Origin: Eledone cirrhosa
Lineage: Eukaryota
Direction: 5' to 3'
Length of the DNA stretch: 64,000 bases
Assembly (NCBI GenBank): GCA_964016885.1
Contig: OZ024742.1
Span: forward strand, 331,204,001-331,268,000
Part shown: positions 5,761 to 62,124 of the stretch, piece by piece
Layout: each line of letters starts with the position of its first letter
Position numbering within the stretch: position 1 is the first letter of the stretch
Program-made: the position numbers and the translations under genes
The notes under the pieces: model-generated
The model's database searches: none
Seen by the model: the letters and a program-made list of their open reading frames with translations, nothing else
What the model was told of the DNA's origin: nothing

Positions 5761-5838
<78 letters not shown>

Positions 5839-5961
5839 ATATATATATATAGTAATAATAGTAAATTTGAAGACTAAAATCCAAAGATGGCTCGATAAGG
5901 ATAAATATATATCAAATATATAAGAACCGTAGAGCAAATATTTATTAAAATAACAGATTAA

Positions 5962-6012
5962 AGTTTAAGCAAAGAATCGCTGCTTTCACCCTTAACGGGA
6001 TCTTCTGAAACT
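5962..6012 (-). ncRNA. Type I hammerhead ribozyme, U4A core variant
   Basis: agttt-CAGAAGA-tccc gttaa gggt-GAA-agca gcgattctt tgct-T-aaact; CUU triplet. Confidence 0.65.
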
Positions 6013-6949
6013 AACAAAGTCAATCTGTAAACGCAGAAATGGATATTTCAAAAAACGTTGCAACCGGAGGAAGACAGGAAGACGACACTTTGGTTCTTGG
6101 ATACGTTCGCTGGCAAAGAACGGGAAAAACGAATATAATACGTCATTAATAGGAGCGTTGAAAAACAATTACGCGCAAAGACATAACCACGTTTATGGTA
6201 TAAAAGAGGTCGTAGACTCATGTTCTCTTAGGTGGTTCATAGAGACGTTCTCTGGCAATGAACGAAAAAAACGAAGATAATACGTCATATGTGGGGCGTG
6301 GAGAACAATAGCACGCAAAGATAAAACCACGTAAATGGTATAGCAGAAGTCGTAGACTAAAATTCTAACTAGGAGACCAAATGAATCTTCGCTACATAGT
6401 TAAGAACAAAGTAAATAAATACAATACAGAAGTAATAGAAATAAATAAATACATACGCGCAAACAAATACGTACATACACAAGCATACGCAAAACACTTA
6501 CCATAGGTATACAAAACCACGCACATATAAATATGTGTGTGTAGTATGCGTGTATACAAATAAATAAATAATTATATAAACGTATATAAATAAATAAATA
6601 CGTATATAACAAGCGCACACACATACCTACATGTAAATACACGAATGTACGAAGACGTAAGTCAACCAAAACATGAAGTACATATATACACACACCCTAC
6701 ATACGTACGAACCTGCATACTCACACAGACGCAAAACGCCCGTATACACATAACCAAACCATATGTACCAGAATGTATAAACAAATTATACGCCATAACA
6801 TAAACAATCTAATATACGTACCTGAAGGTATACGTACCTTCACAAAACATACGGGTAATATATACATACCTATGCAAATAAATAATGGTATAAATAAACA
6901 TATACTTAGCTCCCACATCAAGACGTAAAATATCCACGTATAGATCGTA

Positions 6950-8057
6950 CTATCCGTTAGGGTATAAATTGGGGCTGTAATACAGGAAAGTTTTGTGCAA
7001 TTTATGTATACAAGCCGAAAATGCCTCAGATTTTTTGTTTAAGATGTGGTTCGTGGCGAAGAGTATTTCCAGGGCCTCAGCCGCGCAGAGGTCACATGGT
7101 CTTTTATTTCCGTTATACGATCTAGCCCTAGCTAGGATCTCCCAGTGTAACTTATATTGGGTGTGGTTGTCTTTTAGACTCCAGATATAAGCTGAAAGTG
7201 ACGTCATATTCCTTCTTAGAGGGTAACGAAAAGAATGGGTATGCATGTAAAGACGCTGCTTGAATCTATTGGCGGTTAACCCTATGTAGGTACTACGGGA
7301 CGTGGGTGTTACAAACTTACATTTGTAGACAATGTTACTAGAGAGGCATTTTCCGGAAAGGGGGCAATCAACCCAATTCCTACAATTACAGTTAGTACTA
7401 ACTACAGGGCTGCACGTGTTCCTACGGCTAGGTAGTTTAGCTAAATTTGAAGCTGTGATGTTGTGTGCAAGGTTAGGAGTCGTAGAGTAAGACATTTTAG
7501 TAGTATTTCTATTAAAAATGTTACTATATTTATGTGTAGGGGGAAAATGCTTCGTAATAAGGGAAAGAAAGATCTTAGCTAATGGTGTAGCCACCTCCAT
7601 ATTATCTGGTGGGTTATACCAACAAATGCGACGGGATCTATTTCTCCTAGGTCTATTTTCTTACTCTGTATATGCTACCTTATCGACAAATCCACTTCGA
7701 GCAAGAGCTTCCTTGTAATAAGTGGAATGGTCGTTGAAAAAACGCTCGTTGGTGGAAAGACGGGAAAGCCTCAACGAAACGTTTCTTACCAGGTTTTTGG
7801 CTATGCTGGCAGGATGGTTGGAATGCTTACTTATGTAATTAAGCGTATAATTCGGCTTTGTATACGGGTAATACAGCCCATTCAATAGATTGAGGGTAAC
7901 GTCGAGGTAATTAACGATGAGAGATTGGCCTCAACCTGTATAGAGAGGTTGAAGCCTTTAAAGAAGGCTGTGAGTTCTTTTCTGAACCTGTCGCAAGCAC
8001 GAGGTCCGCACTTAGTCATGGTCAAAAGACCATCGTCACGGTACAAACCACCGCCCG
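6950..8057 (-). pseudogene. PLE polyprotein fragment (RT palm/thumb plus GIY-YIG; CxC-x5-C-x5-C linker, Nematis-like)
   Basis: ORFs 7882-8184, 7661-7885 and 6950-7600 are joined by a frameshift near 7913 and a stop at 7661. Confidence 0.9.
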
Positions 8058-9184
8058 CGGGCGGTTGTTTGTAACGTGACGATGGTTTGTACCGTGACGA
8101 TGGTCTTTTGACCATGACTAAGTGCGGGCCTCGTGCTTGCGACAGGTTCAGAAAAGAACTCACAGCCTTCTTTAAAGGCTTCAACCTCTCTATACAGGTG
8201 AGGCCAATCTCTCGGTCGTTAATTACCTCGACGTTACCCTCAATTTATTGAATGGGTTGTATTACACGTATAGAAAGCCGTATGATACGCTTAATTACAT
8301 AAGTAAGCATTCCAACCATCCTGCCAGCATAACCAAGAACCTGGTAAGAAACGTTTCGTTGAGGCTTTCCCGTCTTTCCACCAACGAACGTATTTTCAAC
8401 GAACATTCCACTTATTACAATCAATCTCTTGCTCGAAGTGGATTTGTCGATAAGGTAGCATATACAGAGTACGAAAATAGACCGAGAAGAAATAGATCCT
8501 GTCGCATTTGTTGGTATAACCCACCATATAATATGGAGGTGGCCACACCATTAGCTAAGATCTTTCTTTCCCTTATTACGAAGCATTTTCCCCCGACACA
8601 TAAATATAGTAACATTTTTAATAGAAATACTATTAACATTTCTTACTCTACGACTCGTAACGTTGCACATAACATCACAGCTTCAAATTTTATCTAAACT
8701 ACCTAGCCGTAGGAACACGTGCAGCCCCGTAGTTAGTACTAACTGTAATTGTAGGAATCGGGTTAATTGCCCCCTATCCGGGAAATGCCACTCTAGTAAC
8801 TTTGTCTACAAATGTAAGGTTGTAACACCCACGCCCCGTAGGGCCTACATAGGTTTAACCGCCAATAGATTCAAGCTGCGTCTTTACATGCATACCCATA
8901 CTTTTCGTTACCCTCTAAGAATGAATATGACGTCACTTTCAGCTTATATCTGGATTCTAAAAGACAACCACACCCAATATAAGTTACACTGGGAGATCCT
9001 AGCTAGGGCTAGATCGTATAACGGAAATAAAAGACCATGTGACCTCTGCGCGGCTGAGGCCCTGGAAATACTCTTCGCCACGGACCACATCTTAAACAAA
9101 AAATCTGAGGCAAGTTCGGCTTGTAAACATAAATTGTACAAAACTTCCCTGTATTACAGCCCCACATTATACCCTAACGGATAG
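8058..9184 (+). pseudogene. PLE polyprotein fragment (RT plus GIY-YIG), right-arm copy
   Basis: ORFs 8248-8697 and 8663-9184, with frameshifts near 8200 and 8690 that are absent from the left arm. Confidence 0.9.
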
Positions 9185-10119
9185 TACGATCTATACGTGG
9201 ATATTTTACGTCTTGATGTGGGAGCTAAGTATATATTTTGTTTATACCATTACTTATTTGCATAGGTAAGTATATATTACCCGTATGTTTTGTGAAGGTA
9301 CGTATACCTTCAGGTACGTATATTAGATTGTTTATGTTATGGCGTATAATTTGTTTATACATTCTGGTACATATGGTTTGGTTATGTGTATACGGGCGTT
9401 TTGCATCTGAGTGAGTATGCAGGTTCGTACGTATGTAGGGTGTGTGTATATGTGTACTTCATGTTTTGGTTGATTTACGTCTCCGTACATTCGTGTATTT
9501 GCATGTAGGTATGTGTGTGCGCTTGTTATATACGTATTTATTTATTTATATACGTTTATATAATTATTTATTTATTTGTATACACGAGTACACACACATA
9601 TTTATATGTGCGTGGCTTTGTATACCTATGGTAAGTGTTTTCCGTATGCTTGTGTATGTACGTATTTGTTTGCGTGTATGTATCTATTTATCCCTATTAC
9701 TTCTGTATTGTATTTATTTACTTTGTTCTTAACTCTGTAGCGGAAATTCATTCGGTCTCCTAGTTAGAATTTTAGTCTACGACATCTGCTATACCATTTA
9801 CGTGGTTTTGTCTTGGTGTGTTATTGTTCTCCACGCTCCACATATGACGTATTATCTTCGTTGTTTTCGTTCATTGCCAGAGAACGTCTCTATGAACCAC
9901 CTAAGAGAACATTAGTCTACGACCTCTTTTATACCATACACGTGGTTCTGTCTTTCCGCGTAATTGTTTTTACCGCTCCTATTAATGACGTATTATATTC
10001 GTTTTTTCCCGTTCTTTGCCAGCGAACGTTTCTACGAACCAAAGTATCGTCTTCCTGTCTTGCTCCGGTTGCAACGTTTTTTGAAATATCCATTTCTGCG
10101 TTTACAGATTGACTTTGTT

Positions 10120-10170
10120 AGTTTCAGAAGATCACGTTAAGGGTGAAAGCAGCGATTCTTTGCTTAAACT
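10120..10170 (+). ncRNA. Type I hammerhead ribozyme, U4A core variant (right arm)
   Basis: Same fold as 5962-6012 with one stem II mismatch. Confidence 0.6.
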
Positions 10171-10293
10171 TTAATCTGTTATTTTAATGAATATATATAT
10201 ATATATATATATATGCTAACACACACATACACACTCATACGCAATCGGACATAAATACATACACAAACAGACACACACACACATATATATGTA

Positions 10294-10685
<392 letters not shown>

Positions 10686-24648: not shown

Positions 24649-25410
<762 letters not shown>

Positions 25411-25411
25411 G

Positions 25412-25865
25412 AGAGAGAGAGAATTAATACATCTACCAACATATGCGTACAGATGTACGCCAATACTAGTAAATATATAAGTCATGTCAAAGTACCTAGG
25501 TGGTTCAATGCAGCGGGATGCAGAACAATTATATAAAAGACGTATAATTAGAAAATTTTAAAAATTAAAAATTAACTTACTTACTAAAATTTTCACTCCA
25601 ACTAATTAGTTTCTGTAATGGGATAAATATAGTTACACAATGTAACTATCGTGAATTCATTACGTCATCGGGAGTCTATTCTCAGCTAAGTTCCCAGGCA
25701 ATGCGCGGACACTAGGAACCCATATAAAAATAATAATTCAGTGGATGTAATAAGCTAGCGGGGACTAAATTCCATAGCACTGACCAGAGGCAGTGAACTT
25801 TTTAAGAAGTGAAATTTTAGTAAGTAAGTTAATTTTTAATTTTTAAGATTTTCTTATTTTACGTC

Positions 25866-30632: not shown

Positions 30633-30960
30633 AGCTTATATAGGATTAACTGCTTGTGACTTCAAGACCCGGCTATACCAATACAGACATACTTTCCGAA
30701 ACCCGGCCCGGCGTCACGCCACTACACTTTCGGGCCTCATCTGGGACCTCAAAGATAAAAGTATAACCTATAATCTCACTTAGAGCTGACTGTCCAGAGC
30801 CAACTCTTACACGAGAGGGCGCCGCCCGTGTAACTTATGCTCGGAGGAAGCATTACAAATGCTGTTTTCGACGGACCAACTCCTAAACAAGAAAGACGAA
30901 CTGGTAACTGCATGCAAACACAGATTGCCTAGGACTTACCTCGCCCTCAAACCCCATAAT
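30633..30960 (+). pseudogene. GIY-YIG endonuclease C-terminal half
   Basis: AYIGLTACDFKTRLYQYRHTFRN...TTLSGLIWDLKD...CNLCSEEALQML...LLNKKDELVTACKH, with two stops. Confidence 0.9.
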
Positions 30961-32269: not shown

Positions 32270-32342
<73 letters not shown>

Positions 32343-32890
32343 AAGAGAGAGCGAAAGAGAGAAGTACATATGTATAATACATATATGCACACAGTCTCAC
32401 ACACACATATTTATATATTTACAAATTCAAACAAAAACAATAACAAATATATTTCTACATATGTCAACATAGATATATCGTATAACCATATAAATTTTTC
32501 TCATAGATAGATGAAAATACATCTACCTTATACACCAGAGGAAACCGTACAGTCAATAAACGGTAACTAGATTTTCCTCTAGATTTTCGCACTATGCTAC
32601 AAGGCTTATACAAATCAAATTAGCATCCATTATTCATTATTAACAGTTTATATATAAAGTTTATTTTGCTTCAAGCGATATAGCAATATATTCATTACGT
32701 TTCATCGAGGCAATGCGCAAGATAATCATTCAAAGTTCTGAACGCAAATGATATTCTATTTCATGAAAATGTTAGTGTGAAATTCTGAGAATGTATGTGG
32801 ATAGGATATTTATTTTCTTTATATCTATGAATCGCTAGCTTATGTATTGTTTCCTTTACATTTTATATGACTAATTGTATGACTAATATA

Positions 32891-32929
<39 letters not shown>

Positions 32930-32932
<3 letters not shown>

Positions 32933-34520
32933 ATATAAGATCAAAAGATGGTTAAAGGAGTTCCATGTATTTTATTATGCGCATTTCAAAAACAAACATC
33001 ATCATGCAATAATATTTGTGTTTTCATCAGATAAAACAGGAGAACATGATATGAAGGCTAAAAAACACTTGTGGATAGTGCAGTTTTAAATCAACATATG
33101 AAAAGTATTTTTAGATTGATGTGTGATATTGGGGAAAATATTTTATTTAGAGAGGGGGGGGTGGAAAGGATGAAAAAAGGGGAGGAGATGAGATTGAAGG
33201 TGGAGAGGGAGAGATGGGTGATAGAGAGAAATATATATTGTTTTACATAGAGAGGTTGAAAACCGTTGGAAGATAATGTATAAATTAAAAGAATTTGAAA
33301 ATTAACGAAGGGAAAAATATGTACGAGGAAAAAATATTTTATTTAGAGAGGGGGGTGGAAAGGATGAAAAAAGGGGAGGAGATGAGAGTGAAGGTGGAGA
33401 GGGAGAGATGGGTGATAGAGAGAAAGAGATAGTTTTTATAACTGAGAAAAGATATATTGTTTTACATAGAGAGGTTGAGAACCGTTGGAAGATAATGTAT
33501 GAATTAAAAGAATTTGAAAATTAACGAAGGGAAAGAGAGGGAGTTGATATGTATTGATATTAAAAAGTTTGAAGATAGAGAGAAAAAATAATAATTGCGG
33601 ATGAATATTCTAACGTCAAAAGGGGTATGTTTATAAGTATTATGGCAATTTCAAAATTGACGAAGAGAAAAAATTATTAAGGTTTGTGTGTAGAAGTTAA
33701 AGTTTGTATATTAAAGGAATTGATAATATTTGCGAAGAAAGAGTTAATATGTATTTAAAATTATTAAGGTTTGTGTGTATTAGATGATTTGAGAAAAATA
33801 ATGTGAAGTTAAGGTTTTTATATTGAAGGAATTGATAATTTGTGCGAAGAAATAGTTAATATGTATTAAGAATGTGTTAGTTGATGGGAAGAAAAAAATA
33901 TATTATTAAGGATGAATATTCTAGCGTCAAAAAAAGGAGGAGAGGGAGTTAATGTATTGAGATTGAAAAGTTTGATGATGGAGAGAAAAAAAAAATAATA
34001 ATTGCGGATGAATATTCTAACGTCAAAAAAACAAATGTATATGTTATGAAGGATTTTACAAGGTGAAGATAGAATGAGGGTAATGAGTAAACAAGTATTA
34101 TAGAGTGTATAATGCCCTTTGAAGTAAGGTAGGAAGAATGGGTATATTTTAAAGAGGTGTATGTATATGTGCCTTTGAGAAAAGATTCTAAATTGATAAA
34201 GAATTGAATATTAGCTGTATACTTTGTGAAAGGTCCTATGGAATTTATGCAGGCAGATAGAAAACAAATCTGTACGTCTATTTATTATAGAATCTAGATT
34301 AGAGATAATGGTAAATTTTTCATTTAGGCAGAGATTACAGATTTTAGATAGAGAGCTGTTCAAGTATGAGGACGCAGAAGAAACCTTCTTCCAAAAGATG
34401 GTATATTTAATGTTTTTGTCTTTCAAGGACCATATGAGTTCTGAGATAGCCGTGTTGGTTCTTTTAAGTTTGTATTTAAAAGATGAATGATGATTATAGA
34501 GACGAGCTTTAAAAGAGGTG
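32930..34520 (-). mobile_element. PLE 3' part: GIY-YIG C-terminus (34211-34520) plus long 3' UTR
   Basis: STSFKARLYNHHSSF...TAISELIWSLKD...CNLCLNEK...IINRRTDLFSICLH; the terminus matches 54740-54945. Confidence 0.9.
32970..33036 (-). ncRNA. Type I hammerhead ribozyme
   Basis: ttttat-CTGATGA-long stem II-GAAA tgcgc ATA-ataaaa; palindromic stem III ATGCGCAT. Confidence 0.88.
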
Positions 34521-34859
34521 GAATAAAGCTAGCGGGGACTAAATTCCAAAGCACTGAAAAAATTCACTGCCTCTGGTCAGTGGCAGATTCTAAAGAATCA
34601 ATCACGTGACACTGAGGTTAATCAGTGAGGAGTGGGGTGGTATTATGACAAGAGCCTACTAATACCATGAATCAGCAGTAAATTCTGGCAAGTTTTACTC
34701 AATAAATAATTTGGAGATAAATATAGAGGATTAGTATATCTCCAAATTATTTGTTGAGTAAAACTTGCCAGAATTTACTGCTGATTCATGGTATTAGTAG
34801 GCTCTTGTCATAATACCACCCCACTCGTCACTGATTAACCTCAGTGTCACGTGATTGAT
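34521..34859. repeat. Snap-back hairpin (arms about 34597-34718 and 34737-34859) derived from the 24745/25412 family
   Basis: Near-perfect 122-bp inverted repeat with 2 mismatches seen; 34525-34660 aligns with 24978-25110 and 25751-25783. Confidence 0.92.
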
Positions 34860-37420
34860 ACTACTAGTCTGAACAGATCTGGCAATGCATTACCACCAGA
34901 ACAGTCCTTATCTACTAGCAATCCTACGTGTAATGCATTACCACTTGAGCCAACCAATAACACCCGGAAGTGCAATTGTAGAGTGAGTGCTAACTGCCTT
35001 TTAAACGGTAACTGCCTTTCTAAGAACATTGTCTATGCTTGCGAAGTTATAACTAATTCCTCTAATAGAACTTATATAGGCTCTACATCTAACACTTTTA
35101 AGACTAGGTTTAACTCTCATATCTCTAATTTCAAGCATGTTAAGTTTAAGAATTCTACTTCTTAAGCACATTATATCTGGGATCTTAAGGGAGCTAATAT
35201 ACCATATAGCCTTAACAGGCGTTTAGTAGCACGTTCTAACCACCTTTCTACACATACTAAGTTTTGTAATCTCTGTATCCTCGAGACACACTCTATAATC
35301 TTCTCTAGCGCATCCTTAATAGAAAGTCTGAGATATTCTCTTCTTGCCCCCACGCTATTTCTAATTCATACTTATATTATAAACCTAAACGTTCTAGTAG
35401 TACAAATTGTACCCATTAGCTGATATATTCCATTATTTATTTTTTAGTTTAGGATCTTTTGTTTGCCAACATTATTATTATCATTGGTTTTGATGACTCT
35501 TTATTCTAGCTCTCATAATCTTTTGGCTACTGTACCATATCTATCTTCTTACGCATTAAATTTTCACTATTACACCTTATGAATGTATATAAGATTATAT
35601 ATTTTACGCTATTTATTTTATTTTATTTTATTCTTATTTTTATTTTTATTTTTATTTTTATTCGGATTCTTCTTTGGACTCCCCCCCCCTTCCCCCCCAT
35701 GCGCACATAAACTTATTATCAACCCCTCCAAATTGACTATGATTATGTTTACCCCCCCCCCTCTTTTACGCTCCTTTCTATTATGTAATATAGTATATCG
35801 ACTATTTTTTATGCCCCTTTGCATCCTCCATATATTTCTTCATTTCTGTCCCTATTAGCCTACCTTAATTCTGCTTAAGTCAGTTTTTTAGATATCGTTA
35901 TGTATATGATAGTAACAAATTTTCATTCCTTTTTGTAAACATTTGTAACGAAATATTAACGTTTATAAACTTTAATGACTTAAACTATAGCTAATATTAT
36001 ACTGCCTTACTGGATAGTTTAAATATTTTTAATATTAATTTATCAAATAGGGTTTTTGAGTCATTTACAGGGGTTGTTTCCTTAGTTTTTACTTAACTAC
36101 TTAACTGCATGTGAGACCTAAATGTATACGTTTGTTTTTTTTTTTTTTATTTCCGGTTGATTCTATTTATTTATTTTATTCTATATTTTATATTTTATAT
36201 TTTATTTGTAATACTACTGTGCATTATATTTACTGTCTGGCACTTACTCACTCATCCATATACATGTCTGTCTACCAACCTTGTAATTATAAGTAATTAT
36301 ATATTATATTATGTTAATTTATTTTATATAATATATTATATTATATTGTAGTTGTTATTGTAATATTGATCCTTATTACTTACCGTTAATTATATGTAAC
36401 ATTATGATATGTTAAACTTTATATATCATGTCAGATGTTTGTACTTTAAGTACCATCAACATTTTTTGGGGGTATTGTACAATTTATTTTTCCTCACCTA
36501 CTCTGTAACCCAGTATGAATTGATTTGTTAACTTGAGTACCATTATATATTGTTTATTATAAATGTTAGTATATTGTATATTATAAATGTTAGTATATTA
36601 TTATTATATTATTATTGTGACATCTATATTGTTTGTGTAAATTAACCGGAGATTATCTATTCTATTATATTGTATTATATAGTATATAATTGTATTATTT
36701 ATTATTTATTATATGTGCTACTTATAATTATAACATATTATTACCTCATGTATATTGGGTAGGTGTATTATTATTATTATTATTATTATTTTCATTCCTA
36801 TCATGCTTATTTTTATATTCAAACTCTTTAATAAGGTTTAATTTGTGCAGTTGAAGATGGATGTGTGTATTGTTGTATGTGTATGTGTGTGTACGTGTGC
36901 GCACATATATACATATGAATATTGTACCTTTTGATTTTTATTGTAATTTTAATGTTGGTAAAGGTATATTATATTATATTAGATTATATTACATTGTATT
37001 ATATATAATTCCTGCTCTATATAACCACCTTTGTTTAGCTCTAGGTTTTTTTTGCTTTGGACTATATTTGTAATATGGTTCTTAATGTTATATACATCCT
37101 CAGTAATTTTTATTATATATTTTTTATTATTTTTATTATATATTTTTGCAATACTTTAGTATATGTACACTCCATATTCTTCGGAGCTTCCGGCTTGTAT
37201 CTGCCGATATTACTTCTTGTTGTTTTAATTGCCCTGATGAGTCCTTAATAGGACGAAACATTGTCGGCTAATAAAGACTTTTGATGTATTGAAGGCTTCT
37301 TTGTTTTACTCTCTTAATTTTTCGGCTCTGTTTAACTACATTGAGCTATACCTTTTACTGTCATTTCTATAATACGAAGAGGGTGTTTAACTCCAACACG
37401 CTCCAGTATTTTAACCCTTA
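34860..37420 (+). mobile_element. PLE 3' part: linker plus GIY-YIG (34860-35400) and 2-kb AT-rich 3' UTR
   Basis: CNCRVSANCLLNGNCLSKNIVYAC...YIGSTSNTFKTRFNSH...YIWDLK...CNLCILE; HHR near the end. Confidence 0.88.
37228..37272 (+). ncRNA. Minimal type I hammerhead ribozyme
   Basis: attgcc-CTGATGA-gtcc ttaata ggac-GAAAC att GTC-ggctaat; canonical core. Confidence 0.92.
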
Positions 37421-37427
37421 TATATAA

Positions 37428-37724
37428 AAATATAGTTTAATTAGGAATAAGTAAAAATTAGTAATAAGTATTGGTTAGTATTCAGTTTTAGTTTTAATTT
37501 TTTACCGGTTGCGCATTTCTAATGCTTTTCAAAAATAACTTCGAGATAGAGCTCCCGTGATGTTTGCTCTAATTAGATGATTAGAGCAAACATCACGGGC
37601 GCTCTATCTCAAAATTATTTTTGAAAAGCATTAGAAATTCACAACCGGTAAAAGCTTAAAACTAAAACTGAATACTAACCAATACTTATTACTAATTTTG
37701 ACTTATTCCTTCTTAAACTATTTT
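37428..37724. mobile_element. Non-coding ~300-bp palindrome with an HHR relic on each arm
   Basis: Centre ctctaat-tagatg-attagag near 37577; arms carry TTGAAAA gcatt aga aatgc GCAAC CG GTA (37498-37536 minus, 37618-37653 plus). Confidence 0.88.
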
Positions 37725-37764
37725 ACACTGGGAACAATTTGTCAGCATTTTCTTTTCCTTTTAC

Positions 37765-37842
<78 letters not shown>

Positions 37843-38718
37843 ATATTTTGGGAAGTTCAGACTTTCCAATAAAATCCCACACACGTGTTAAATTTCACTT
37901 CACTTGATTATAAACTCCCAGTCGGTTACTTTAATGAACTACTTATGTTGTTATTTTCTGTGTCTCTTTTGTTACCTCATGTATTATGTTTAATTGTACC
38001 GGGAAAACAAATTAATGTTATGCTTTATTTGTCAGCCTTTGTCTTTTATAAATGTCTGCCTCGCTGTACTGGCTTTGTTAAGTGATTACCATACAATTAT
38101 TTATATATATATAAATATATATATGGGGGGGGGTGCAGTTATATTAAAGGTAAAAATACACAAGGGTATATTTAAATGTTGAAATAATCCCATGCATATG
38201 CCAATTTCATTAATTATTTAAATGCCTGTTCCCATAGTCTGAGGGCAGTTAGAACATATGAGGATTTTCCCTCTTAGTCTCATCATATATATATATATAT
38301 GTGTGTGTGTGTGTTCTTTATGAAGCTAGAGTGGTGAAAGTGGAATGGAAGCTCAACAGGTCAGGATTCAATTGACACCTTGGAAAATAAGGATCGAAGG
38401 CCCAGATAGAATTTAGTTTTGTATGAGTCCTTGGTTGTGCGTGTTTATTTATTTAGTTGGGCTTGCATTGTGTGAAAAGCTCAAGTTTATATATATATAT
38501 ATATAATTCTTTTCTGAATTTGTTTAGCAAGATTCTTTATATGAAAACGTGTGTTGAAACCGATATTGTTATGTTTTGGGTGGGACATGTTTCCAATAAG
38601 AAACACACGCACCAGTATCTTTCACCCCAACTTATTATAAATTAAATTTATAAATTTAAGAATTTATAAATTTCCGGTTGGTCGGTTGGTTCCACCACCG
38701 GACGGTTGTTCATATATT

Positions 38719-41464: not shown

Positions 41465-42952
41465 TTAAGTTATTTTATAGTGAGATAATTTAGCTTTTAG
41501 TTTGTGGTTGCAGTATAATGATCGTTCAATTCTATCGTTAAGTAGTTTGTTTTTGGATTTTAGTATGTAAAATAGCTCAAGGTTACATAACCTGCAGTAC
41601 TTCAAACCACTCCGATATGCATTTGCGCTGGAAAGTATATCCCATTTTAAGGTGAAATGTTGGTTGTGTTCACGGAGTTGCCAGGTCTTGTTGGCGAGCG
41701 TGGTCACAAAACGGTGATTCTGATGTTTGATTGAGAATCGATGACGGTACCAGCGAGATTTAAACGATGTGGTGGTAGATCCGATATAATACCATTTCTG
41801 GTCGTCCGATTCAACCGTGCATTGGTAAACAATGTTGGACTTTAGGCATTCATTCTGCAATGGACATCTTTCAGGTAGATGGCAGTTACATGCTTTGTTG
41901 TGGGTAGCGGGTATACCATGGATAGGTTGTGATAGCGGTACAGGTGGGTTGTGCAATATCCGTCTCCCATTTAGTGGTTGGGAGGCAGATATTGCGTTCT
42001 GCCCACCTGTTACTAAAATGTTTTGTTTTGTAGAGTTGTTTAATTGCCTTAAGTTAAGTTTTTTTTATGTATGCTTCAAGGTTTGGTGCCGTGGAGTATG
42101 ATAGTCTAATAGTTTTGGAGTTCAGAATTTTGCTGTACTTATGGGAACTAGGGAAGTGTTTATTGATTAATTTAAAGAATGAAAGAGATAGTTTTGTACT
42201 AATCGAGGCATTAAAAATAGGATTATACCAGATATACTTTCTACAACGTGATTTATTTGGTGGTGAACTTCTATTATTAGTATGTCTGGTAGTATAGTGT
42301 GTGTGTGCTTGTGTTTTAGTCCCCCGGTTACGTATACCTTGATTACTTGTAGAGCTATGTGTGTTGTGGAAATTACTATCGATGTATTCTATTGTATCCC
42401 GGTGGTCAGCATTCCTTAATGCATTATTGTAGTATTCAGCATGTTCGCTAAAAATATCAGAGTTAGACGATAGGCGAGAGATTCTAAGAGAAATACTCCG
42501 GGGAACTGATTTGATCATGGAGAGTGGGTGGTTAGAGTTAAAGTCAATATACGTAAGGTTCTCATTTACCTTGTGGAAGGGTCGTATCTGTCCGGTATTT
42601 AAATTAAGAGTTACATCCAGAAAGTTTACTACCTTAAGATTGTATTCGTATGTTATTTTTAGGCCCAGTTCACTAAAAGATTTTCTAATATTTTTCCGTA
42701 GCCTTTCAAGATTTTGGTTATTCAAGTTATTAACTAATAAGAGCCCGTCATCTCTATATATCCCCCCCTGTAGATTACTAAATCTATTATGTAATATGTG
42801 GGCTATGTAAATTCCCACGAGATCCGTGACCTCCGCCGAGTCGTTGGAACCCATGGTAATATCGAAATTTGTGGGTCTGTCCTTACGTTCCCAGTAGCAG
42901 TTATCGAACTTAATAATGGTTTTTCTAGCCTCGAGAATAATATTAATACATT
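41465..42952 (-). pseudogene. PLE RT plus GIY-YIG polyprotein fragment (Nematis-like linker), one homopolymer frameshift
   Basis: FDITMGSNDSAEV, GGIYRDDG, VNFLDVTL, SNHP, WYNP, CNC-x5-CPLQNEC, IVYQC..YIGST; an A8 run at 42059-42066 breaks the frame. Confidence 0.95.
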
Positions 42953-43344: not shown

Positions 43345-43433
<89 letters not shown>

Positions 43434-51684: not shown

Positions 51685-51855
51685 ATATATTAGAAAGTGA
51701 GGTTTTTTTACAAAAAAGGGAAAAAAGATGAAATCGAAAATGCAACTGGAGTCTTTTAATTTAATATATATTTATTTGGTTCCTTTACCGGTTTCGCAGT
51801 TCTTCTGCTTTTCAAAAGTAGAATTGAGATGGAGGGTTTGTGGTTTTTCTCGCAT
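51685..51855 (-). mobile_element. Solo terminus of the 59404-62265 PLE family with HHR at 51782-51819
   Basis: Matches 59404-59546 and the reverse complement of 62241-62265. Confidence 0.88.
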
Positions 51856-51950: not shown

Positions 51951-52168
51951 TCTACCGAATTATTATTATTTTTATATGAGTCCCCAGTGTCCGCGCATTG
52001 CCTGGAGACTTAGCTGAGAATAGACTCCCTGATGACGCAATGAATTATCGACAGTTTATTACGTAACTGTCTTTATCCCATTGCAGAAACTAATTAGTTG
52101 GAGTGAAAATTTTAGTAAGTAAGTTCATTTTTTTACATTTTTTTAAAATTTTCTTATTTTACGTCTTC
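51951..52168 (+). mobile_element. Solo terminus of the 24745 family
   Basis: Reverse complement of 24750-24972. Confidence 0.9.
52024..52104 (+). ncRNA. Type I hammerhead ribozyme with extended stem II
   Basis: actcc-CTGATGA-c gcaatg...cattgc a-GAAAC taatta GTT-ggagt. Confidence 0.9.
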
Positions 52169-52217
52169 TCTCTCTATATATATATGTACATATATATACA
52201 TATATGTACCTACATAT

Positions 52218-54739: not shown

Positions 54740-55660
54740 TAATATAAGATCAAAAGATGGTTAAAAGAGTTCCAAGTATTTTATTATGCGTATTTCAAAA
54801 ACAAATATCATCATTGGATGATATCTGTGTTTTCATCAGATAAAATAGGGATACATGATATGAAGTTTAAAAAACAGTTGTGAATAGTGAAGTTTTAAAT
54901 CAACATATGAAAAGTAATTTAAGATTGATGTGTGAGATTGGGAAAAAGTGAGGGTGGGTTGGAAAAGGTAAGGAAGAGGAGGAGATGAGAGTAAAGAATG
55001 GTGGGGGAGAAGGAAGGCTGAGAGAGGAGGAGAGATGGGTGATAGAGAGAGATGATAGCCTTTACAACTGAGAAAAAATATATATTGTCTCACACAGAGA
55101 AGTTAAAATCCGTTGGAAGATAATAGATAATTTAAAAGAATTTCAAATTAAAAGTTGTTGAAGAGAAAAAGGGGTTAAGTATAATATTAAATTAAGGTAT
55201 GTATATTCAAGGTTTTAATAATATGTGCGAGGAAAATAAATTATTAATATGTATTATTAAAATTAAAATATTAATGTTAGTAAGGATATAATGTGAAAAG
55301 AAGTAGAAGAATGGATGAGATATGAATTTAGAGGAATTAGTTAGTGTTTAAGTTTGTTTTTATGTAATATATGTACGTAAACAGTTTGTTTAAAAATAAG
55401 CGTAGAAAGCAAAGAAGAAAATAATGTTTAAGGAAGAAAATATCTAACATCAACAGATATATATTATCACGAACTATTTTATAATGGTAATAATATTAAA
55501 AGAAATTAGTTAGGGTTTACGTTTGTTTTTATGTATTGTAATATGTAAAAGTAAAACGAGCATGAAAGGAAGATATAATGAATTTAAGGACGAAAAATCT
55601 AACGTAAAAAAAAATGTTTATCTTTACGAAGGACTATTAAAGGTAATACTATAATGTATT
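54740..55660 (-). mobile_element. PLE 3' UTR/terminus of the 32930 family
   Basis: Aligns with 32932-33140 and downstream blocks. Confidence 0.85.
54779..54845 (-). ncRNA. Type I hammerhead ribozyme
   Basis: ttttat-CTGATGA-aaacacagatatcat...atgatatttgtttt t-GAAA tacgc ATA-ataaaa. Confidence 0.87.
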
Positions 55661-56074: not shown

Positions 56075-59398
<3,324 letters not shown>

Positions 59399-59475
59399 GT
59401 ATAAAGAAAAAGAGATGAAATCGAAAATGCAACTGGAGTCTTAGTTTTTTTTTAAATATATATATTTATTTGGTT

Positions 59476-59513: not shown

Positions 59514-59903
59514 TGAGTTGAGATGGAGATTCTGTGGTTTTTTTCACATCTGGTTGGTCTCTGAATGTTACTTGTTTTATATGGAAAAAGTGTCTCGAAA
59601 TGCCAGGTTTTTCGAGAAGTAATTATTGGTTTGTCAATAATTATAATAAATTTCGCGCCAGTTCGCGTTACAATAGTTCTTCCAATAAGAGGGGGGGGGG
59701 GGGCGTTGTCACAGGTTGTTTTTTCATATATGAGTGTTTGAATTTCTTTTTACTTGAAAAAGGGAGGCTCACGAAGGCTTTTATTTAGTTGGTTATAAAT
59801 GAAATTATGGCTGTCACGTGAACAAATTTTCATTAAATTTTTGTGCCCTTATTTGGAAATCCATTCTGTAGCCTTTTTAGAGAATTTTTTGATAAGTAAA
59901 AGA

Positions 59904-59964
59904 TAATTGTTTCTACTTTAGGCACAAGGCCATCAAATACCCAGTGCATTACTGGTACTTTATT
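59904..59964 (-). mobile_element. 5'-truncated SINE with ~16-bp target-site duplication
   Basis: tttgataagtaaaaga is repeated at about 59888-59903 and 59964-59979; the insert is absent from the other arm. Confidence 0.85.
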
Positions 59965-60094
59965 TTGATAAGTAAAAGAGAAAGGGTTGGGAGAATTGTT
60001 CTGGTTCAGTGAATATGGTTAGTTCGCTGGGGTGTCAGAATTCAGATTTTCTATTGAATAAAGAAAGTAAAGATATGTGTGTTTATTTGTGTGC

Positions 60095-62086: not shown

Positions 62087-62124
62087 CCTTTTGAAAAGCA
62101 GAAGAACTGCGAAACCGGTAAAGG
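62087..62124 (+). ncRNA. Minimal hammerhead ribozyme, U3-A8 core
   Basis: Identical to 59476-59513; palindromic stem III ACCGGT. Confidence 0.85.

Follow-up and report, generated by a model that had tools for sequence, protein, structure and literature searches.

Three retroelement fragments, two of them Penelope-like, fused head-to-head without spacers in Eledone cirrhosa DNA: a probable stepwise build-up at a TA-repeat site

Positions 32930-37420 of a 64,000-nucleotide (nt) stretch of Eledone cirrhosa DNA (contig OZ024742.1, forward-strand positions 331,204,001 to 331,268,000; hereafter the window, whose own coordinates are used throughout) hold three fragments, two from Penelope-like elements (PLEs) and one that resembles a PLE 3' end, fused head-to-head without spacers. 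They are a minus-strand PLE (family 1), a segment of a second kind that folds back on itself (family 3) and a plus-strand PLE (family 2). Our judgement leans slightly towards a stepwise pile-up, in which one (TA)n hot spot received two or more insertions on separate occasions, sealed by microhomology and deletion. At the level of sequence this reading is suggested by the polarity of the parts, the damage in family 2, the crowding of TA-abutting PLE remnants, a comparable pair of fragments at 51855/51955 and the hairpin of a fourth family that abuts family 2. All family comparisons were based on copies within the 64-kb window and on distant protein homologues.

The left arm, family 1 (32930-34528, minus strand), is a 5'-truncated PLE with a C-terminal GIY-YIG endonuclease remnant, a 3' untranslated region (UTR) of about 1.3 kb with internal duplications, and a hammerhead near its 3' end. 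A (TA)n run at 32888-32929 (pure at 32895-32929) lies beside that end and is likely to be its target and primer site. The endonuclease remnant (34211-34528, minus strand) is an intact stretch of 105 codons that ends inside the YIG motif without a stop or frameshift. It matched another PLE endonuclease of the window by tblastn (E 7e-20) and 2469 library proteins at E<=0.001, the best 150 of these at 32-59% identity; the Pfam search of the window returned no match for it, and a search for close protein relatives gave one weak match. A 3' end related to family 1 occurs at 54742 (19 mismatches in 202). The predicted hammerhead core (32976-33030, minus strand) is of type I, with a long stem II and a minimal stem III; it folds, and fits a descriptor with an 8-bp stem I that had five matches in the window as against 0.03 per shuffled window. 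An Rfam scan gave it no score. Two different families, ending at 34528 and 30637, are both 5'-truncated at the endonuclease YIG motif, by chance or at a pause site.

The right arm, family 2 (34860-37420, plus strand), is a 5'-truncated Neptune-like element comprising a linker, a CxC-x5-C motif, a GIY-YIG domain, a 3' UTR of about 2 kb and a hammerhead. Its linker and endonuclease remnant (34860-35419, plus strand) is interrupted by a stop codon (35163-35165) and, around 35312-35321, by a frameshift; it matched Pfam GIY-YIG with E 1.8e-4 and 22.2 bits, under the 22.6 cut-off. There is no second DNA copy of family 2 in the window, the search for close protein relatives returned none, and metagenome scans held no relative of it. 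The type I hammerhead (37228-37272, plus strand) was recognised by Rfam (RF00163, Hammerhead_1; E 7.7e-6; 31.7 bits, under the gathering score of 34; fold z -2.8) and is missed by the descriptor with the 8-bp stem I. Thus each outer end does have a predicted hammerhead of its own, as had been proposed from the sequence, the right one by Rfam and the left one by descriptor only. Minimal hammerheads of PLEs have been described (PMC7761336).

Because only 31 of 104 aligned residues agree between them, families 1 and 2 are different families, and the plus-strand PLE that the sequence-only reading had placed at 34860-37420 is indeed distinct. In an endonuclease tree (52 of 138 trimmed rows, weakly resolved, with homologues without names) the two do not pair. 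Both carry the PLE-type GIY-YIG endonuclease that marks endonuclease-bearing (EN+) PLEs, and in both a type I hammerhead is predicted near the 3' end. Family 2 resembles Neptune/Nematis-type GIY-YIG proteins with a Cys-rich linker in having CNC-x5-C upstream of GIY-YIG plus a CxxC...H core, and family 1 retains the CxxC...H core. The family-2 linker (CNC-x5-C...C) is Cys-rich and differs from the literal Neptune CX2-5CxxC; this region is lost from family 1. Both arms are truncated below the reverse transcriptase (RT). Related copies at 42054-42950 and 7469-8664 have upstream open reading frame (ORF) sequence that was read as RT/thumb by eye; that of 42054-42950 had no Pfam match. The clade of either family cannot be fixed because no RT remains, and Naiad and Neptune endonucleases are essentially indistinguishable (PMC8557442).

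Between the arms lies a segment of the 24745 family (family 3; 34526-34736, minus strand, in the same sense as family 1), beginning some 217-231 nt inside that family's TA-abutting end. It runs into a fold-back hairpin (34597-34859) whose arms, 34597-34719 and 34737-34859, differ at two of 123 positions without a gap around a 17-nt loop (34720-34736). A fold-back of this family at 34597-34859 had been noted before, and stands; the 71 nt of unpaired family-3 DNA ahead of it (34526-34596) had been omitted. The assignment to family 3 is drawn from copy A (24979-25110; 23 mismatches in 128 against 34527-34660) and copy B (25752-25783; one mismatch in 32 against 34526-34557), and the segment and copy A have in common an exact 25-mer, with 0 expected by chance. 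For 34661-34736, which has no second copy in the window, it is by continuity only. No copy of family 3 in the window has an ORF or a PLE protein match, and none has an Rfam ribozyme match, a CTGATGA word being present without a full core; metagenome scans held no family-3 motif. The family resembles a PLE 3' end in ending on TA and in forming head-to-head doublets, only short 3' pieces being known here. It was also considered as a pseudo long terminal repeat of family 1 or 2 and rejected as such, there being no match to either 3' end. Rfam microRNA matches on the hairpins were below gathering scores and reflect any long stem.

Several further observations concern family 3. A stem at 24900-24950 (minus), 25700-25725 (minus) and 51975-52015 (plus) shows covariation, two of 20 pairs being changed on both sides across the three copies; it lies upstream of the CTGATGA word, has no Rfam match, and is possibly an unrecognised ribozyme or RT-binding structure. 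A hairpin with a TA/GA core (25260-25530) is found between the 3' ends of family-3 doublets, giving a larger palindrome at 25111-25666. At the centre of doublet B (25778-25807), an internal family-3 piece of 25-30 nt is inverted between short inverted repeats, as in a local template jump within the family. The family-3 breakpoints at 51955 and 34526 are nearly identical though they apparently belong to different subfamilies, a possible breakpoint hot spot.

At the first junction, AAG at 34526-34528 is at once the first matching bases of copy B and the codon of a family-1 Leu. The homologue columns came from the 120 of the best 150 homologues that have the FKxR motif; position -6 is Gly in 91 of these and position -5 is Leu in 68, and family 1 has the Leu without the Gly. 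A 3-nt overlap is therefore likely, the family-1 Leu codon being AAG where the copy-B match begins. Family 1 could end up to 6 nt earlier, since the Tyr that it has at -4 falls outside the six residues most often seen at that position. The minus-strand PLE previously drawn at 32930-34520 is thus right in element and strand and short at its end, as family 1 reaches 34522-34528. A longer microhomology was rejected: the first test, in which no family-1 15-mer scored as high, had included the junction-defining AAG, and without it 25 of 288 did. Because of this non-circular result only the 3-nt overlap stands, and it fits deletion or end-joining equally as well as a switch. At the second junction the hairpin arm stops at 34859 and an in-frame degenerate repeat of the family-2 linker extends back to 34860. 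Similarity across this point is at chance level (27% of 16-mers), and protein relatives at 32-59% identity are too distant to fix it.

The absence of a microsatellite, claimed earlier for the first join, held for both: no (TA)3 run lies within 40 nt of either. Nor did the junctions yield a target duplication, which the sequence-only reading had named as the mark of nested insertions. No direct repeat flanks 34526-34859, the sole match for the arms alone being the palindromic TCACGTGA inside them. In a nested insertion the flanks would be continuous parts of one element; here those of the hairpin are different families. When one target duplication enclosing the whole structure was sought, only a TA-type word was common to the two outer ends. 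Neither junction has a second copy in the 64 kb.

The hammerhead-bearing 3' ends of families 1 and 2 face outward. Target-primed synthesis begins at the 3' end of an element. For one PLE, such synthesis from the element 3' end has been described (PMC11167929). A strand primed at the left TA would run rightward through families 1 and 3 from sense RNA and then fold back onto its own DNA. After the fold-back it cannot copy family-2 sense RNA, because the strand then has family-2 sense; family 2 must therefore have been primed from the right, been already present, or been copied from antisense RNA. Polarity is the same on both sides of the first junction, as across a template switch, and changes at the second. 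The passage from family 1 to family 3 could thus be a same-sense template switch and the hairpin is a copying of the element's own DNA, so that, given the opposite polarity of family 2, at most one cross-family RNA switch is implied. The earlier proposal of one event with several template switches keeps this much: the first junction could be one switch, and polarity bars the continuous chain of RNA switches.

In the stepwise build-up that we favour, the first insertion would have been that of family 2, with priming from the right-hand TA. A later reverse transcription from the left TA run would have brought in families 3 and 1; over 123 nt the family-3 strand would have folded onto itself, as at the centres of other palindromes in the window. 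The fold-back end would then have been joined to the old family-2 copy, with intervening DNA lost, and family 1 to family 3 through the 3-nt overlap. That family 1 arrived by a further insertion, deleting about 220 nt of family 3, we would suggest only tentatively; that a single RT jump during the family-3 event linked it to family 3 is a rather doubtful variant. Opposite-strand nesting of one Penelope in another, along with microhomology deletions, is known from Adineta (PMC3846280), and microhomology at 5'-truncated junctions and target truncation have been reported in long interspersed elements (LINEs; PMC4245944). Within the window, single fragments with their 5' end on TA occur at 43347, 51855 and 51955, and at 51855/51955 two other families stand head-to-head with a TA spacer between them, a state that deletion would convert into a spacer-free cross-family structure. 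Such a spacer-free join is uncommon in the window, and its precursor state is present too. On the right, family 2 is followed by only about 7 nt of TA and then by the fourth family's hairpin (37429-37724), a neighbouring older fold-back related to the 3' end of the element at 59399 (11 mismatches in 145).

The ages of the parts hint that, as far as sequence goes, family 2 predates family 1 and the hairpin. Doublet arms in the window differ at 1/193 (40804), 2/148 (24745), 2/123 (the hairpin at 34597-34859), 21/485 (59399) and 35/543 (29931) positions; for the hairpin this gives a 95% interval of 0.2-5.8% and a point age of 0.8% per arm. Family 2 has a stop, a frameshift and the changes W>R and P>L, with 4-6 single-step changes at conserved columns (stop included). 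Its conserved-site lesion rate is 6.5-7.9%, as compared to 5.2-7.7% for the copy at 30637, whose doublet arms differ at 35/543. Family 1 has 2-3 conserved-column changes (3.4-3.9%) and no stop or frameshift. Lesion probabilities were calculated with indels set at 0.13 per substitution, the ratio in four doublets of the window: the stop and frameshift together have P=0.047 at 0.8% per lineage, and five or more lesions have P=0.056 at the hairpin point age. The apparent decay of family 2, together with an overlap equally compatible with deletion or end-joining, reduces the single integration event that had been proposed to a candidate.

A number of points weigh against the stepwise reading. It requires DNA loss at both junctions, and a TA remnant or the missing family-3 3' end was searched for nearby and not found. 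In its outer anatomy the structure matches doublets made in a single event. Only a weak age signal is present, given the wide arm interval of 0.2-5.8%; towards its upper end the family-2 damage is expected (P=0.33 to 0.51; stop and frameshift P=0.33 at 2.9%). The young control at 41465 (arms 1/193) has 1-4 changes, or 1.6-6.2%, from family traits alone, with no stop in the scored span. The family-2 lesions could predate insertion, conversion between the arms could give the hairpin a falsely young look, and the divergence of the family-1 internal duplicates (3/87 and 5/107) overlaps the hairpin age. Lastly, family-3 copy C (51955-52170) stops only a few bases from the start of this piece, and its end could mark an RNA end that invites jumps.

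An appreciable, though clearly smaller, chance goes to a single event in which both ends of a cut TA site were primed separately, the left strand copying family 1, jumping into internal family-3 RNA and folding back, the right strand copying family 2, and the two being joined. As in same-family doublets, the 3' ends and their hammerheads point outward on both sides; the junctions lack TA or a target duplication, and lesion statistics do not reject equal age. Two primings are inferred for the asymmetric doublets 40804/42951 and 24745/25111 of the window, since fold-back alone cannot produce them; a Poseidon protein, a predicted dimer, cuts both strands and also extends them (PMC11167929), and L1 makes opposite-orientation chimeras of two RNAs (PMC4476161). 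However, RNAs of three families would be required at one site simultaneously, whereas all four coding doublets of the window (units with GIY-YIG sequence at 5765, 29931, 40804 and 59399) are same-family, and Adineta Penelopes showed no cross-mobilization (PMC3846280). Family 2 also looks more decayed, and the jump would land in family 3 some 220 nt away from the usual start, at no recognised ribozyme site. The strict form of the sequence-only reading, a single RT running continuously through family-1, family-3 and family-2 RNAs, appears very improbable. Penelope has been suggested to use antisense templates and self-priming (PMC3846280), and tripartite LINE chimeras have been ascribed to double jumps; these may nevertheless be two events (both PMC4476161), and an antisense family-2 RNA would have to be entered inside the ORF and copied exactly to a 3' end that joins TA without priming. 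Summed over the separate primings, the hybrid case and this strict version, a true cross-family RT jump at the first junction stands at about an even chance, and the earlier claim that the locus shows PLE RT jumping between unrelated RNAs was overstated for one locus.

It is improbable that the whole composite was copied from elsewhere as a repeated unit, or that a junction is an assembly error. Six of the nine public sequencing runs listed contain part of 32340-38300; three, all from one sample, contain at least half, and the best contain only 0.52-0.54 of its sampled words, shares that carry no information about the junctions. Yet the two differences between the arms, and the different sequences into which they continue to left and right, are not what a fold-back read artefact would give; proper PLE 3' ends are present at both outer margins, and neither junction recurs in the window. 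Very little credence is given to the first junction as the breakpoint of a 17-kb inversion that split one family-3 copy, with copy C as the other half. Copy C stops 0-5 nt from the start of this piece in family-3 coordinates, its orientation fits, and L1-mediated inversions with two halves of one element have been described (bioRxiv 2024.08.27.596794). Against this, copy C is closer to copy A (15/211 mismatches) than to copy B (21/207), the 34526 piece being B-like (1/32) and far from A (13/53). The 13-mer TACCTACATATAT lies on both sides of copy C (two of its three window occurrences), because of which the flanks look like one array. The inversion was largely rejected on this subfamily affinity and on the shared flanks.

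It is standard for PLEs to have head-to-head inverted copies, with a palindrome where the inverted copy is joined, and to target TA (PMC8557442; PMC3846280). The present structure resembles the EN+ PLEs that carry, at their 5' end, a 5'-truncated copy in inverted orientation (Craig et al. 2021, PMC8557442; Arkhipova et al. 2013, PMC3846280) in its 5' truncation, head-to-head arrangement and junction palindrome, in the hammerhead near the 3' end, and in TA-repeat targets that hide target duplications. Unlike in the described cases, where the inverted copy is of the same family, the outer arms here are of two families and the palindrome comes from a third. L1 twin-priming U5/L1 and tripartite LINE chimeras (Doucet et al. 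2015, PMC4476161) likewise join two RNAs in opposite orientation in one insertion, and either a double switch or two events account for their three parts; target duplications and empty sites validated those cases, whereas the TA target here gives none, and every partner here is a retroelement family. In L1 bridges (bioRxiv 2024.08.27.596794) the 5' ends of two 5'-truncated L1s are joined; these bridges share the outward 3' ends and the joining at truncation points, but are somatic, tumour-borne, of one family and tied to rearrangements. No report of a cross-family PLE doublet was found in the literature searched, supplements and most subscription papers being outside its coverage.

The origin of PLE head-to-head structures is an open question (PMC8557442), for which cross-family doublets would be natural markers of whether one or two RNAs lie behind the doublet arms. 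One decayed locus cannot decide this; in a genome rich in distinct TA-targeting families, a census of junctions would be a direct test. If both ends of the TA site were primed separately, the inverted arm of Penelope doublets derives from a second RNA molecule, and Penelope machinery is not family-strict (the families being about 30% alike in the endonuclease), which would offer a route for exchanging 3' ends and ribozymes. If the build-up was stepwise, the locus is ordinary repeat debris.

Judged by its content, the window is repeat-rich, eukaryotic and probably animal DNA. It is AT-rich (34% GC), with 95 TA runs of at least 14 nt and abundant TA-abutting PLE remnants. Seven related GIY-YIG remnants were found, plus one of another type. 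Of 20 inverted units listed within 5 kb, 14 are local (two overlapping, one being the hairpin at 34597-34859) and six are dispersed short-repeat copies. A 4.6-kb GIY-YIG PLE palindrome at 5765-10384 has arms 92% alike and a tight fold-back centre at about 8060, with small local repeats adjoining. A LINE-type element (56413-59444) contains endonuclease and RT ORF pieces (Pfam Exo_endo_phos_2, RVT_1, DUF6451), and at 59892-59966 a piece of about 75 nt of a dispersed short repeat lies nested in the UTR of a PLE; the direct repeats of about 17 nt that flank it are a clear target duplication of this insertion. The element at 59399 has a hammerhead-like motif (59509-59480, minus; 62091-62120, plus) with the core TTGAAAA in place of CTGANGA, a U3/A8 swap of the C3-G8 pair, and stems I and II of 4 bp each; related sequence occurs at 51721-51855 and in the 37429 hairpin.

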